A program made the position numbers and the translations under genes. 42,466 nucleotides of DNA, from positions 1 to 42,466 of the forward strand of contig CAYICB010000007.1 of NCBI GenBank assembly GCA_964361825.1. Direction: 5' to 3'. The notes below the pieces were generated by a model. That model did not search any database. It was not told the DNA's origin and worked only from the letters and a program-made list of their open reading frames with translations. Below are positions 11,073 to 17,247 of the stretch, one piece after another. How positions within the stretch are numbered: position 1 is the stretch's first letter; the number at the start of each line of letters is the position of its first letter. The stretch comes from an uncultured Candidatus Saccharibacteria bacterium. Lineage in GTDB: Bacteria > Patescibacteriota > Minisyncoccia > Phycocordibacterales > JACOZG01.

Positions 11073-11957
11073 CTAATCTTGAGGGGGGTTGATCAGAAGA
11101 ACCGCGTTTGATTTTTCTTGTCTTTTCTGACCTTCCCTTACATGACTGTGCCACAAATGTTGGCCACTTTCATCAACATCACACACGGGGGAGTGTTTGG
11201 TGATTTCAATATTGCAGTTGGCTAAACCGCAGTGTCTCATTTCCCGGCGGATTAAATGTCTCAGCCTGATGCCACCGGAGACTGATTTTTTGAGACAACC
11301 TTCATGCCAACCCACCTTGATCCTCTCAAGTAATCGTTGGTTTTTGGTGCCATAAACCGGATCGGTGGGACTGTAAACAAAGTGTCCACCACGAATGCCG
11401 AGAATTATCCCCCCGCTCAAATCCTCAGCTAGAATTCCTGAATTCTTGTGTTTGTGTCTCAGAAGGGTGTTCACCGCACTTCTTACCACACTTTCAACCC
11501 CAGTTTTTTCTGGATTGTCTGAAACGATTGACCGCAATCCGGCGCGGAAGAAAGCGATGCCTTTAATGTGCGGGTGGGCCACATAACAAGCAGCGCAATC
11601 AGCCACGCGAATCAAAGCGGCTTCTCCGGGGAACACGATGACCCCTTCAGCCGCTAGATCAGTGTAAACAGTCACTTTTCTGATGTTGAATTTTTGGTGG
11701 AAAGCAGTTTTGCAGTCAATGATCAGTCGATTGAAACGCGCGGTGTTTGGTCTGAGTAGGGTGTGTATACCACATTGCTCAAGAAGGGTTGCTATCAAAC
11801 TCAAACCTTCAGGATTGTCTCCGGGTGGTATATGCACCCGTGTGCCGAAAAGGTGGATTGATGCTCCGTGTCGTAGCCCCACCATCTTTGACAGAGTTTC
11901 TTGAGCACAAACTTTAGACATGGTTGTCATCTGCTTACTCCTTTTCATAAACAACAA
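11073..11957 (-). CDS. Divergent YfiH/PgeF (LACC1-like) family protein
   Basis: EGVIVFPGEAALIRVADCAACYVA...IAFFRAGLRS resembles DALIT..ADC.P...HAGWRG; LWHSHVREG resembles FFSYRR. Confidence 0.62.
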   Translation of the reverse strand: MLFMKRSKQMTTMSKVCAQETLSKMVGLRHGASIHLFGTRVHIPPGDNPEGLSLIATLLEQCGIHTLLRPNTARFNRLIIDCKTAFHQKFNIRKVTVYTDLAAEGVIVFPGEAALIRVADCAACYVAHPHIKGIAFFRAGLRSIVSDNPEKTGVESVVRSAVNTLLRHKHKNSGILAEDLSGGIILGIRGGHFVYSPTDPVYGTKNQRLLERIKVGWHEGCLKKSVSGGIRLRHLIRREMRHCGLANCNIEITKHSPVCDVDESGQHLWHSHVREGQKRQEKSNAVLLINPPQD

Positions 11958-14570: not shown

Positions 14571-14584
14571 AAAATGTGTATTCT
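14557..14584 (+). promoter_or_regulatory. Candidate sigma70 promoter for the effector gene
   Basis: TTGACG-16 bp-TATTCT. Confidence 0.4.
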
Positions 14585-14643
14585 GTATGGTGGCGTGGTT
14601 GTTGTTTGAAAGAAAATTGAGTTCTAGAGAAAGATGGTGCTAA

Positions 14644-16365
14644 ATGATGGTATTGGTAGCAGAGAAGGAACGAAGTGCTGATACTGTCGTTCCCGTTCCT
14701 AATGTGGTGGAGATCGTTGACTACCGCGTGGTGGAAACCGAAATTCATTTGACGGGTGGCCCGCGGGTGCAAACAATCAAGAATTGGATCACCCGCGTGG
14801 GCCGGGCCGAAGCTGAAGCGATGCGAATGCTCAAGGAGTATTTACGGATTCAGAAAGTCGAGATTACAGATGAAGATGGCGAGGTCGAGGAAAAAATCGT
14901 TCGCGCCGAACTTTATCTTCCCTGTGTTGATCCGGCAAAACTGGTTGCGGCTCGTGAATTGATTAAGCCCGATAGAGTTAAAACGACTAACGATGAGCTT
15001 GGTGGGAATAAAGAATTGAGCCCAGCCGCGCTGGCTCGCCCTAAGTATCTCAATTCGTATCATTTGGTTGAGATTGTTGAAAAAACAGGCGAGGTGCCAG
15101 TCTTGCGTTTCGTTTTACTTGAGACATACAGTTTCGAGGTTGAGATCAAGCGTGGGCCGAAAAAGGGTGAGAAGAAAACAGTGAAAACCTCGGTTCACAT
15201 TGAGGTGACCAAGGCACTCCAGCGACTCATTACGAGTTGGCTGGCGCCACCACTTTTCAAGACCTTGCCGGCCAAGTTTAAGGATGGTGCGGCGCAAGAA
15301 GTGGCCCAATCGCTCGCTTCTCACTTGGGAATCCAAGAGAAGGCCGACCCGACCCGTCCCGATATTGGTTTCCCTTCCTTTGATCAAGCAGATCCGCGAC
15401 TTTGCGATCAGTCTAAACCACTTCAGCATCAGCCCCTGCGTTTTACTGGTAGTGGTGATGTGACGGTCTTCCGCCGGATTTGGAATGATCCGCACACGCA
15501 AGAGCGTTTACCCGGTCTCTGGGCCGCTATCCCGCTCGACCATGTTGAGACTTGGTGGCACAAGAAATTGGCGGAATTCACCCCACTTCCCATTTGGAGT
15601 GGCGCGAGTTTAACCACCCCCAAGGGCAAGCCCAAGAACCTAATGCTCGTGCCACTCTCTATCCGTCACGGTTGGGAAATCAAACGATTTTGTGAACTGT
15701 CGTCTGATTTAGAGAATCTTGATCATGGTCGTTTGGTGCGGACTCTAAGCGGTAAGGAATTTAAGCCCTGTTGGTCCTTGTTGGTTCGGCGGGGTGATAG
15801 GTTCTTTATCCAACTTGTGCTCAAACGCGAGGTGGAAATTCCGTCTCGGCCCAACACTTGCGGAGTGCATATCGCCTTGACCAAAGAACCGCATGGTTGG
15901 AGTATCAAGCTCCACTGGGCTTGCGATGATCAAACTGGAGAAATTCTGCTTGAGTATCCGGGTCAAGTGTGGAGACGAAATCGCGACAAGGAAGGCAACG
16001 CCTTATCTGGTGGGAGCCTTCATCCGATGTTCGACCATCGGGAAAAGCGTCGGGATAATGCTTGCGTGGCGGCGCTTAAACTGGTGGCCATCGCCAAGCG
16101 CCTTAATGCCAATCTCTATCTGGAGGATGTAAAAGGTAATAAGAAGCGCGGTCAAGGCCAACCGGGAGGAACCTTGGCGACAAGGTTTAACCACGCTTCC
16201 ATTGCTGAAATCGTTCAACAAAAGGCGGTTGATGGTCGCGTTTGCGTCGAACTGGTGCCGGGTTTCAAGTTGTTGGAAACGGGCATTAGAGACTTGTCGC
16301 CTTCAGAGAAGGCTGGGGTCATTGCCAGTCTGGGTCTAGAAAGGAGAAAGAAAAAGGAGGAATAA
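14644..16365 (+). CDS. Compact type V (Cas12/TnpB-like) CRISPR effector with degenerate RuvC, probably nuclease-inactive
   Basis: WSLLVRRGDRFFIQLVLKREVE followed by CGVHIA (RuvC-I, His409 for Asp); LYLED (RuvC-II, E494); FNHASIAEIVQQKAVDGRVCVELVP (TnpB-like helix-strand); terminal helix KAGVIASLGL; adjacent to cas1, array and anti-repeat. Confidence 0.75.
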   Translation: MMVLVAEKERSADTVVPVPNVVEIVDYRVVETEIHLTGGPRVQTIKNWITRVGRAEAEAMRMLKEYLRIQKVEITDEDGEVEEKIVRAELYLPCVDPAKLVAARELIKPDRVKTTNDELGGNKELSPAALARPKYLNSYHLVEIVEKTGEVPVLRFVLLETYSFEVEIKRGPKKGEKKTVKTSVHIEVTKALQRLITSWLAPPLFKTLPAKFKDGAAQEVAQSLASHLGIQEKADPTRPDIGFPSFDQADPRLCDQSKPLQHQPLRFTGSGDVTVFRRIWNDPHTQERLPGLWAAIPLDHVETWWHKKLAEFTPLPIWSGASLTTPKGKPKNLMLVPLSIRHGWEIKRFCELSSDLENLDHGRLVRTLSGKEFKPCWSLLVRRGDRFFIQLVLKREVEIPSRPNTCGVHIALTKEPHGWSIKLHWACDDQTGEILLEYPGQVWRRNRDKEGNALSGGSLHPMFDHREKRRDNACVAALKLVAIAKRLNANLYLEDVKGNKKRGQGQPGGTLATRFNHASIAEIVQQKAVDGRVCVELVPGFKLLETGIRDLSPSEKAGVIASLGLERRKKKEE

Positions 16366-16380
16366 ATTTGTTCCTTCTCC

Positions 16381-16417
16381 GTCCTCCGAGGCAAGCAATT
16401 GCTTCGGGGGACTTTTT
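16381..16417 (+). terminator. Intrinsic terminator between effector and cas1
   Basis: 14-bp stem gtcctccgaggcaa/ttgcttcgggggac (two GU pairs), GCAA loop, then T5. Confidence 0.85.
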
Positions 16418-16435
16418 GTGCTTGATTTTGGGTTA

Positions 16436-17191
16436 ATGGAAAAAATGAAGGAAGTTTACCATGATCCAGTTTTGGTAAGGGCACAAATTGTGTTTAGTGA
16501 TAGCGCGGCTGGTTTAGAAACTGCCAAAGAAATCATTAAAACTAAGATAAAAAACTCCCGACTTTTGCTTACTGTTTATGCTCGCTCGCCGCGGCGCACT
16601 GGTTCTGATCAGGCTAGTATTATTCAAACTATCGTAGGAGAAATGTGGCGCTGGGAGCAATTAGTTGTGGGGGCCGAGACTAAAGCCAGAACTTTCCAAC
16701 TTGAGGCTCTGGCCGCCAAGGATTATTGGGAGGCGGTACGAGTAATTTGTTATCAGGTCGAAGATTGGCATCGCGTGTATCCTCATGCCACCGATGTTTT
16801 AAGTATCCTGTTAAACACCGGTTATGTGGCTTTGGGGCGGAAAGTTAAAAAGATTTTATTAGAGTCTGGTTTGCTCTTAGAATTTGGCATTTTGCACGGT
16901 AAGAATTCTCGGTTGCCCTTGATTTACGATGTGATGGAAATCTTTCGTCAACCGGCGGTAGATGCGGTGATTATGCCGATTTTTTCGCGTCGACCTAAAA
17001 GTGGGGTAGAGAAGGGGAGCAGAGAATTTAGAAAAGCTATTGCTCTGATGATTGAGCGTTGGCAAGAAAGGTTTTTATACAATGGACGGAAAGAAACCAT
17101 GGAAAGGATTTTGTTTTTAGAAATTTGCCAACTCAAGCGGGCGATTGTAGAAGAAAGACCGTGGAAGCCAATTCTAACATCTGTAAGTTAA
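16436..17191 (+). CDS. cas1: Cas1 integrase homolog, helical catalytic domain only (~250 aa)
   Basis: AKEIIKTKIKNS; QLEALAAKDYW (E); DVLSILLNTGY; EFGILH (H); LIYDVMEIFR (D/E); spacing matches the Cas1 E-H-D triad. Confidence 0.88.
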   Translation: MEKMKEVYHDPVLVRAQIVFSDSAAGLETAKEIIKTKIKNSRLLLTVYARSPRRTGSDQASIIQTIVGEMWRWEQLVVGAETKARTFQLEALAAKDYWEAVRVICYQVEDWHRVYPHATDVLSILLNTGYVALGRKVKKILLESGLLLEFGILHGKNSRLPLIYDVMEIFRQPAVDAVIMPIFSRRPKSGVEKGSREFRKAIALMIERWQERFLYNGRKETMERILFLEICQLKRAIVEERPWKPILTSVS

Positions 17192-17197
17192 AGCAAG

Positions 17198-17222
17198 AAA
17201 AAAGCCACCCATTAAGAGTGGC
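17198..17222 (-). terminator. Terminator of the minus-strand CRISPR transcript
   Basis: Minus strand GCCACUC-uuaau-GGGUGGC-UUUUUU; the stem is complete (with a GU pair) only on this strand. Confidence 0.75.
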
Positions 17223-17247
17223 GATTTGTTCAAAAAAGAGCTTTGTG

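Follow-up and report, generated by a model that had tools for sequence, protein, structure and literature searches.

A miniature Cas12-like effector with a non-canonical RuvC site beside a short Cas1 gene and a largely self-matching CRISPR array in a Patescibacteria genome

Several effectors are naturally nuclease-deficient, among them Cas12k, Cas12c, Cas12m, TldR and dCas12f, and each of them has brought a new use of RNA guidance to light. The uses shown by nuclease-deficient class 2 effectors are transposition, silencing and transcription control. In this paper we describe a further candidate, encoded on a 42,466-nt contig (CAYICB010000007.1) of an uncultured Candidatus Saccharibacteria bacterium, which we call the window. 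Along its forward strand the window carries an effector gene, then a gene for a short Cas1 and then a CRISPR array, most spacers of which match the bacterium's own genome. The reading that we prefer, with a probability of roughly 0.62, is that the effector is a miniature type V protein from a rare lineage of the candidate phyla radiation (CPR), and that it acts as an RNA-guided DNA binder which does not cut and which Cas1 feeds with self spacers.

The closest described system by structure is Cas12k of subtype V-K, a protein of about 600-650 amino acids (aa) with a naturally inactive RuvC domain. Cas12f (also Cas14, subtype V-F) is miniature and has a TnpB-like fold; characterised Cas12f proteins have an Asp-Glu-Asp (D-E-D) site and a zinc finger, and they cut DNA. 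Cas12c and Cas12m keep the canonical RuvC triad, which they use in processing CRISPR RNA (crRNA). Both Cas12c and Cas12m protect by binding DNA without cutting it (10.1101/2021.12.06.471469, PMC11013384), and the abstracts of these two sources make no mention of self-dominated arrays. The V-C and V-D loci contain Cas1 without Cas2 and provide a precedent for adaptation by Cas1 only (PMC6977970). TldR and dCas12f-sigma-E have eroded RuvC motifs and losses in the zinc finger (ZnF)/RuvC region at the C-terminus, bind under RNA guidance and target host genes (10.1101/2023.11.30.569447). In the candidate subtype V-U24 RuvC-I is non-canonical, and a small 'HTH' (helix-turn-helix) protein accompanies the effector (Altae-Tran et al. 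2023, PNAS). Cas12k works together with the ribosomal protein S15 (PDB 8bd5, 8rdu).

The window protein shares the inactive-type RuvC with Cas12k, which is also its best structural match, and the Cas12k-S15 link is echoed by an S15 homolog encoded upstream of the effector in seven relatives, though not in the window. Other features set it apart from Cas12k. A phmmer search of the effector against all PDB chains, ShCas12k included, gave two chance-level matches only and no sequence-level match to Cas12k; the four neighbouring genes (DUF4015, MNT, HEPN and VirD4/TraG-like) include none of the Tn7-type genes tnsB, tnsC or tniQ; and the locus has Cas1 and self-rich arrays instead of one homing spacer. 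The protein is miniature and TnpB-like in fold as Cas12f is (Z about 14), but it lacks the zinc-finger or target-nucleic-acid-binding (TNB) insertion between RuvC-II and RuvC-III. RuvC deterioration and zinc-finger loss are also found in TldR, whereas TldR and dCas12f-sigma-E rely on a single fixed guide without Cas1 or an array, both of which the window has. Of the V-U24 features, the non-canonical RuvC-I is present in the window, and a small helical (S15-like) partner in seven relatives but not in the window. The lineage may be V-U24; a motif I His, S15 homology and self-targeting are not mentioned in the passages of that source examined. Among the titles and abstracts listed in our literature searches there was no lineage with His for Asp in RuvC-I, no S15-like cas-linked gene and no self-dominated type V array. 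In the same searches we did not find described together the combination seen here, namely an effector with a conserved motif I His, an adaptation gene, and arrays that are about half self and directed at housekeeping and surface genes.

The effector and its RuvC site

The features of the window that matter most for the argument are the following.

14644..16365, + strand: effector gene, 573 aa, Cas12/TnpB fold, non-canonical RuvC, without zinc finger (open reading frame (ORF) call, AlphaFold2, Foldseek, HMMER)
15868..15870, + strand: codon of H409, at the RuvC motif I Asp position (alignments)
16123..16125, + strand: codon of E494, where RuvC motif II keeps its Glu (alignments)
16261..16299, + strand: residues 540-552, a 13-residue linker where relatives have a CxxC...CxxC zinc-finger (TNB) insertion (model, tail alignment)
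16300..16308, + strand: P553-S554-E555, with P553 in the canonical motif III Asp column (alignment)
16381..16412, + strand: terminator-like hairpin, 14 pairs and a T-run, directly 3' of the effector stop codon
16418..17191, + strand: short Cas1, 257 aa (PF01867, TIGR00287)
17233..17615, + strand: CRISPR array, five identical 38-nt repeats and 5 spacers of 30-32 nt
17339..17577, + strand: spacers 2-5, with perfect full-length matches elsewhere in their own genome

At the sequence level the effector has no match in Pfam, NCBIfam or PADLOC (0 families at E<=1), and a search of the ESM Atlas returned generic TnpB-like clusters only. Its AlphaFold2 model, for which 66 family sequences were the input, is confident throughout (mean predicted local distance difference test, pLDDT, 87.5; predicted template modelling score, pTM, 0.85). 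Foldseek gave 48 PDB matches at E<=1e-3, and among the matches listed all are Cas12 or TnpB. The best matches from Foldseek and VIA are Cas12e/f/k and TnpB. The top VIA match is Cas12k (Z 15.6, root mean square deviation 3.4, 346 residues aligned, identity 13-15%), effectively tied with Cas12f and ISDra2 TnpB, which lie within about 1.5 Z of it. Structurally, residues 25-570 align to Cas12k/f and TnpB with Z 14-15.6, and residues 403-572 by themselves superpose on RuvC resolvases of bacteria with Z 13 over 132 positions. A superposition of this kind had been proposed in the initial annotation, which was made from the sequence alone and had read the C-terminal third as a RuvC domain, and it bears that assignment out. 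With a bilobed TnpB/Cas12 fold, a C-terminal RuvC and an array alongside, the window has several of the features by which a type V effector is recognised.

The model follows the RNase H order, with a strand at 404-415 (carrying H409), strands at 418-428 and 434-438, a helix at 466-486 and a strand at 489-495 (carrying E494). The C-terminal part consists of helices at 507-530, a strand at 535-539, a short helix at 540-545 and the last helix at 553-572. Residue numbering was verified on the family alignment (A1). Motif I reads C406-G407-V408-H409-I410-A411 and motif II L491-Y492-L493-E494-D495; the fifth strand is V535-E536-L537-V538-P539, and R549-D550-L551-S552-P553-S554-E555-K556-A557 comes after it. 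The alignments thus confirm the His that the initial annotation saw in the motif I Asp place and the Glu that it saw retained in motif II. Its remark that only about 14 residues separate VELVP from the last helix, without a zinc finger, agrees with the 13 residues of the model, and there is no CxxC pair C-terminal to E494 in the effector. For motif III the canonical Asp is missing as claimed, but D550, which had been named as the nearest acid, lies in a variable loop and is not conserved. When the column is set by anchoring the V-I-A end of the last helix on the N-I-A of two canonical TnpB-like sequences, it holds P553. Two residues further on stands E555, and Glu is the family's most frequent residue at that position (20/65). 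In place of the canonical Cas12 D / E / D the effector therefore has H409 / E494 / P553. In enzymes with the RNase H fold the Asp of motif I coordinates both metals, and the RuvC site of this effector is predicted, on its residues, to be incapable of canonical two-metal DNA cleavage.

A word-indexed search found one relative, and the nearest relative is about 42% identical to the effector. Exhaustive HMMER scanning with a profile built from two sequences yielded 74 cluster representatives at E<=1e-3, 59 of them at E<=1e-30. Residues were counted on a MAFFT alignment of 71 relatives of at least 200 aa, with n=67 for motif I and n=65 for motifs II and III. The motif I column contains H 44, S 10, T 5, A 3, L 2, F 1, I 1 and D 1, and the sole Asp belongs to a borderline match (P0072, E 1.6e-5), a canonical TnpB-like protein of 410 aa. 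Retention of D-E-D in all close homologs, which the initial annotation had named as the finding that would speak against it, is therefore not what the family displays. In motif II the column contains E 51, H 5, G 4, V 2, D 1, Q 1 and L 1. The motif III column is more mixed (P 18, D 16, G 7, H 5), its Asp-bearing members including clade A and the Taylorbacteria locus, and the CxxC pair after motif II is missing in 18 of 65 relatives. Another borderline relative, P0073, has the motif I His together with a canonical D-x-N-A-A-x-N-I. Because the same substitutions recur in relatives of about 25-40% identity, they go beyond chance, and judging by these alignments the motif I Asp was lost long ago and family-wide, not in a one-off lesion.

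We built a FastTree phylogeny of 54 full-length members, from which the doubtful P0066 and P0071 and rows shorter than 500 aa had been removed. It has three clades, and the zinc-finger-less state needs at least five changes. The clade of the window protein has 100% support and 11 members, 10 of which have no zinc finger. Five of the 11 keep the His (four HE, one HD). In the remaining six both His and Glu are gone (FG, SQ, AL, LG, LG, IG), and these proteins are still 548-623 aa long. Since they are intact without either residue, the core function of the family would seem to be independent of the pocket.

Self-matching spacers and the preferred reading

Each array was compared with its own genome, and hits of 29 nt or longer with 90% identity or more were taken as self matches. 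The genome of the window (G000; 704 kb in 18 contigs, rated 100% complete, of which the window is one whole 42.5-kb contig) has self matches for four of the five spacers. All four are perfect and full-length, found by BLAST and again by an independent search, and the flanks of the protospacers are unique sequence, not repeats. The targets, by contig of this genome, are as follows.

C1:11266-11296 and C1:12057-12087, plus 28/31 at C1:13970-14000: spacer 2, codons about 25-35 of three tandem paralogs
C1:96539-96570: spacer 3, gene of a PKD-domain protein
C5:48647-48677: spacer 4, 3' end of gatA (TIGR00132, 562 bits), with gatC upstream of gatA
C10:29007-29037: spacer 5, intergenic, about 90 nt past an ABC1-kinase gene

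The genes hit by the spacers are chromosomal. The target contigs of spacers 4 and 5 have depths of 7.7 and 7.5 in one metagenome run, against 6.9 for the locus. The paralogs targeted by spacer 2 are 245, 258 and 625 aa long, the largest with a VWA domain. The spacer matches a conserved N-terminal stretch (..FEAHVINVTARIENAL..) of at least three tandem paralogs (G000:C1:9484-14000, L018). Apart from the VWA of the largest these paralogs have no Pfam family, and a fourth neighbour matches at 18/20 nt.

Self matches recur in relatives. In G767 all four spacers are self-matching, two of them perfectly (heptose epimerase and a GT4 glycosyltransferase); the other two targets are enolase at 94% and dnaK (965 bits) at 90%, with all three dnaK mismatches at third-codon positions. 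G780 has five self-matching spacers out of six in its first array and two out of nine in its second, the Taylorbacteria metagenome-assembled genome G811 has two out of six, and G678 has none out of four. In total 17 of 34 spacers in five genomes are self-matching, 12 of them perfectly. G255 was left out of this total, as its arrays are degenerate and give array-to-array matches only. The effectors beside the self-matching arrays are of different types: His-Glu-Pro (H-E-P) without zinc finger in the window, His-Glu-Asp (H-E-D) without it in G767 and G780, and H-E-D with it in G811. Neither spacer 1 nor spacer 2 gave a hit when IMG/VR was scanned for exact matches. Spacer 1 of G780 (L017:2516-2552) resembles the T-arm and acceptor end of a transfer RNA gene, reversed, and its genomic match is 93% over 30 nt.

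In a 2010 survey self-targeting spacers made up 0.4% of all spacers, and with a cleavage-dead Cas9 the plasmid-derived share of new spacers fell from 68% to 4% and the bias against the chromosome was gone (PMC6990116). The acquisition pattern of dead Cas9 is the one expected at the window locus if the effector does not cut, and self-matching arrays are hard to square with a DNA-cutting effector. Of the binding-only role proposed in the initial annotation, the non-cutting part is thus supported by the family-wide loss of the Asp, by the loss of His and Glu in 6/11 clade members and by the self-matching arrays.

Under the reading that we prefer, the effector would assemble with crRNAs from the adjacent array, and the complex would bind matching DNA without cutting it. 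A mini adaptation module made of Cas1 only would supply the spacers. Those from the bacterium's own chromosome would escape purging because targeting is not lethal, and they would come to dominate the array. crRNA-guided binding, the lack of cleavage and the activity of Cas1 are what we infer here. Binding to self genes could amount to regulation like CRISPR interference (CRISPRi) or be a neutral by-product, and non-self spacers could confer immunity by blocking rather than cutting. If the binding is real, this would be a naturally occurring system that writes CRISPRi guides for itself, and the 573-aa form without zinc finger is a compact candidate DNA binder.

Several points weigh against this reading. 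The conservation of His (44/67) and Glu (51/65) is too strong for a pocket without a role, and 16 of 65 relatives have a motif III Asp and with it an H-E-D site. No shared PAM-like (protospacer adjacent motif) sequence was found in the flanks of the 15 self protospacers examined, and this alone could mean that the self matches are not bound and do no harm. Tight roadblocking of gatA, dnaK or eno should be costly in itself. The window does not have the S15-like partner of seven relatives' loci, and the terminal branch leading to the window protein is long (1.14 in the FastTree phylogeny), so it is possibly a degenerating member. Finally, 'self' means here the same metagenome bin of 18 contigs.

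More tentatively, and with a probability that we put well below even, the whole lineage could be an adaptive CRISPR system directed at self, in which Cas1 writes pieces of the organism's own chromosome and a non-cutting Cas12-like protein binds the organism's own genes. A dedicated S15-like RNA-binding subunit would work with the effector in most members. The targets would be surface-protein paralogs, gatA and the PKD protein in the window, and dnaK, eno and cell-envelope sugar genes in relatives; their expression would be tuned, or their loci marked, in genome-reduced episymbiotic bacteria. The hosts have genomes of about 0.7-1 Mb and few conventional regulators. If true, this would be heritable programmable gene regulation and not immunity.

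Alternative explanations

The alternative that survives best, unlikely as we consider it, is that the RuvC pocket is rearranged and not dead. H409, E494 and a nearby acid (E555 in the window protein, Asp in relatives) would then still be catalytic, for example in pre-crRNA processing, in cleavage of single-stranded DNA or RNA, or in nicking, with no lethal double-strand breaks at chromosomal targets. The retention of His and Glu across relatives of 25-40% identity favours this view, and so do the motif III Asp of 16/65 relatives, which include clade A and the Taylorbacteria locus, and the pairing of His with a canonical D-x-N-A-A-x-N-I in P0073. As far as the alignments go, the conserved His and Glu leave room for other pocket chemistry such as crRNA maturation. 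On the other side stands the general role of the motif I Asp, described above as the ligand of both metals. In six of the 11 members of the window clade, moreover, His and Glu have been lost from ORFs that are intact, and the H-E-D forms in G767, G780 and G811 carry self-matching arrays too. Altae-Tran et al. (2023) take conserved RuvC-II and RuvC-III substitutions as retained activity, yet the rearrangements described in the section of their paper on active-site changes concern RuvC-II and RuvC-III only.

A less probable alternative is that the locus is a non-functional relic in this organism, with a reduced and inactive effector beside which the self spacers added by Cas1 pile up unselected. 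The window copy has indeed lost its zinc finger, the Asp of motif III and the S15-like partner, and its protein is on a long branch. No PAM was seen, essential genes are among the spacer targets, and the locus lies in a 4.2-kb indel that is missing from a same-genus genome. Against decay, the ORF of 573 codons is intact and has its own terminator, two features that the initial annotation had described correctly, and the model is confident throughout. The catalytic-motif residues of Cas1 are kept, and the effector sequence is invariant across four metagenome runs from two studies. The zinc-finger-less relatives form old clades, and self-matching recurs in three other genomes of two other clades. 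The part of the earlier suggestion that speaks against simple decay is therefore supported at the level of the family, by intact ORFs, a shared locus order and self-matching arrays in relatives.

It is very improbable that the effector targets RNA through crRNA pairing with messenger RNA: the in-gene spacers of the window (spacers 2, 3 and 4) are all sense as read on the + strand, so that a minus-strand crRNA would be antisense to all three targets, and minus-strand promoter-like (17947-17919) and terminator-like (17222-17204) sites flank the array, but one window target is intergenic, and in G767, G780 and G811 the spacers lie in either orientation to the longest ORFs, for example dnaK and the epimerase in sense and enolase and the glycosyltransferase in antisense.

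Cas1, related loci and genome setting

The window Cas1 matches PF01867 with 75.4 bits (cut-off 22.3), covering positions 81-253 of the 283 in the profile, and TIGR00287 with 90.8 bits (cut-off 71.7), covering positions 85-324 of 327. It has no N-terminal beta-domain (about the first 80-90 residues), and its alignment with 4n06 begins at chain residue 95. The segments LEALAAKDYW, ILHG and DVME, which we take to be the Cas1 catalytic motifs, align with 4n06, and their E, H and D/E residues are kept. Cas1 is short throughout the lineage, with ORFs of 242-257 aa (242 aa in G767; the Cas1 of L016 lies at L016:7836-8564) and profile matches that start at position 76-85. No cas2 or cas4 was seen beside the short Cas1.

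Among sampled genomes, the effector family was found in four out of 401 of the order (with one weak hit), in five out of 401 of the phylum and in three out of 41 of another order, the query being included in each count. The locus set was widened by four genome contigs and seven metagenome contigs, labelled Saccharibacteria, Taylorbacteria and two 'Gammaproteobacteria' bins, the latter with contigs shorter than 3.5 kb. The set comprises 17 distinct loci, in which L009 and L027 are one contig and L028, L033 and L034 are near-identical. A homolog of the short Cas1 adjoins the effector in nine of the 17, directly downstream in most, and nine have a CRISPR-like array. Neither is found in six loci, namely L014 (G100), with 19.9 kb, and five contigs that measure 2.7-5.4 kb. 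The order effector, Cas1, array is also found in L028, L033 and L034, with a similar layout in L036, and the repeats have a C-rich 5' end in common. As the locus order recurs in relatives, we regard the locus as part of a rare CRISPR-Cas lineage of CPR bacteria. The PADLOC profile PDLC01689 (Cas12f / CAS-V-F) matches the relatives P0058, P0002 and P0015 with E-values of 1.9e-213, 3.1e-68 and 1.8e-61, so part of the family is already in curated profiles under V-F; the window protein is linked to these relatives only via the family hidden Markov model.

Among eight loci for which the ORFs around the effector were listed, seven have an ORF of 84-130 aa directly upstream, often overlapping the effector start codon; none was picked out in L035. 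The seven ORFs are as follows.

L033:7633-7893, L036:4011-4304 and L030:237-626: S15-like ORFs
L014:11430-11681, L013:10970-11227, L015:10923-11306 and L016:10502-10780, - strand: S15-like ORFs

They are mutually homologous (pairwise E 5e-19 to about 1e-2). Four of the seven have a match to Pfam Ribosomal_S15 that falls short of the gathering cut-off (E 3e-5 to 0.17), and the profile of the seven finds uS15 in the PDB at E down to 2e-6. Of the profile matches listed, 59/60 are S15, including the S15 chain of the V-K CRISPR-associated transposon (CAST) assembly 8rdu. An S15-like gene was not found in the window genome, where the best tblastn match had E 0.065; a profile search was also negative but missed its controls and gives weak support. 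The partner gene would turn the host-factor dependence of Cas12k on S15 into a dedicated subunit, and it would offer a way into the question of how ribosomal proteins are recruited by scaffolds of guide RNAs.

Some loci of relatives are disturbed. In G678 there is an inverted duplication around the effector gene (L015:8323-8850, 11514-11900; G678:C10:32203-32279) that includes the array end, and cas1 is a fragment only (118-aa ORF); these features point to a locus that was inverted or rearranged. In G255 (L013:11362-12419) the arrays stand beside a zinc-finger-bearing relative and keep only the 5' ~22 nt of the repeat (GTCCCCAACCTNTTCTCAAAA); no Cas1 was found in that genome.

A genome size of 704 kb is typical of CPR/Patescibacteria, and the metagenome runs with DNA of the locus come from groundwater. 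The remaining features of the window around the locus are these.

17736..17760, + strand: terminator-like hairpin 3' of the array
17948-18816: MNT/HEPN toxin-antitoxin pair (Pfam)
14571..18815: 4.2-kb indel relative to the same-genus genome, comprising the effector, cas1, the array and the MNT/HEPN pair

The indel follows from the complete same-genus genome G310, which does not have the effector family and in which the DUF4015 and VirD4-like genes are adjacent, the latter starting 42 nt after the former. Only 73 nt are available 5' of the effector gene in the window, and its stop codon is 52 nt from the cas1 start. The first repeat copy of the array is reduced to its 3' 24 nt, and the folds of the five repeats are no better than those of shuffled sequences (z -1.8 to +0.8). 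The minus-strand terminator-like hairpin (17204-17222) is placed between cas1 and the array and the minus-strand promoter-like site (17919-17947, 10/12 matches) beyond the array; on sequence grounds the array could be readable from either strand. A 98-nt contig from metagenome run X1 (depth 6.65) joins 17369 to 17509 and skips spacers 3 and 4, which reflects a variant of the array or else a collapse of repeats during assembly. Further downstream, from 18816 to 42466, a gene for a VirD4/TraG-like coupling ATPase is followed by a long run of genes on the same strand, with a G+C content of 0.36-0.45 against 0.47-0.50 upstream, and the first few kb of this region are conserved in the same-genus genome.

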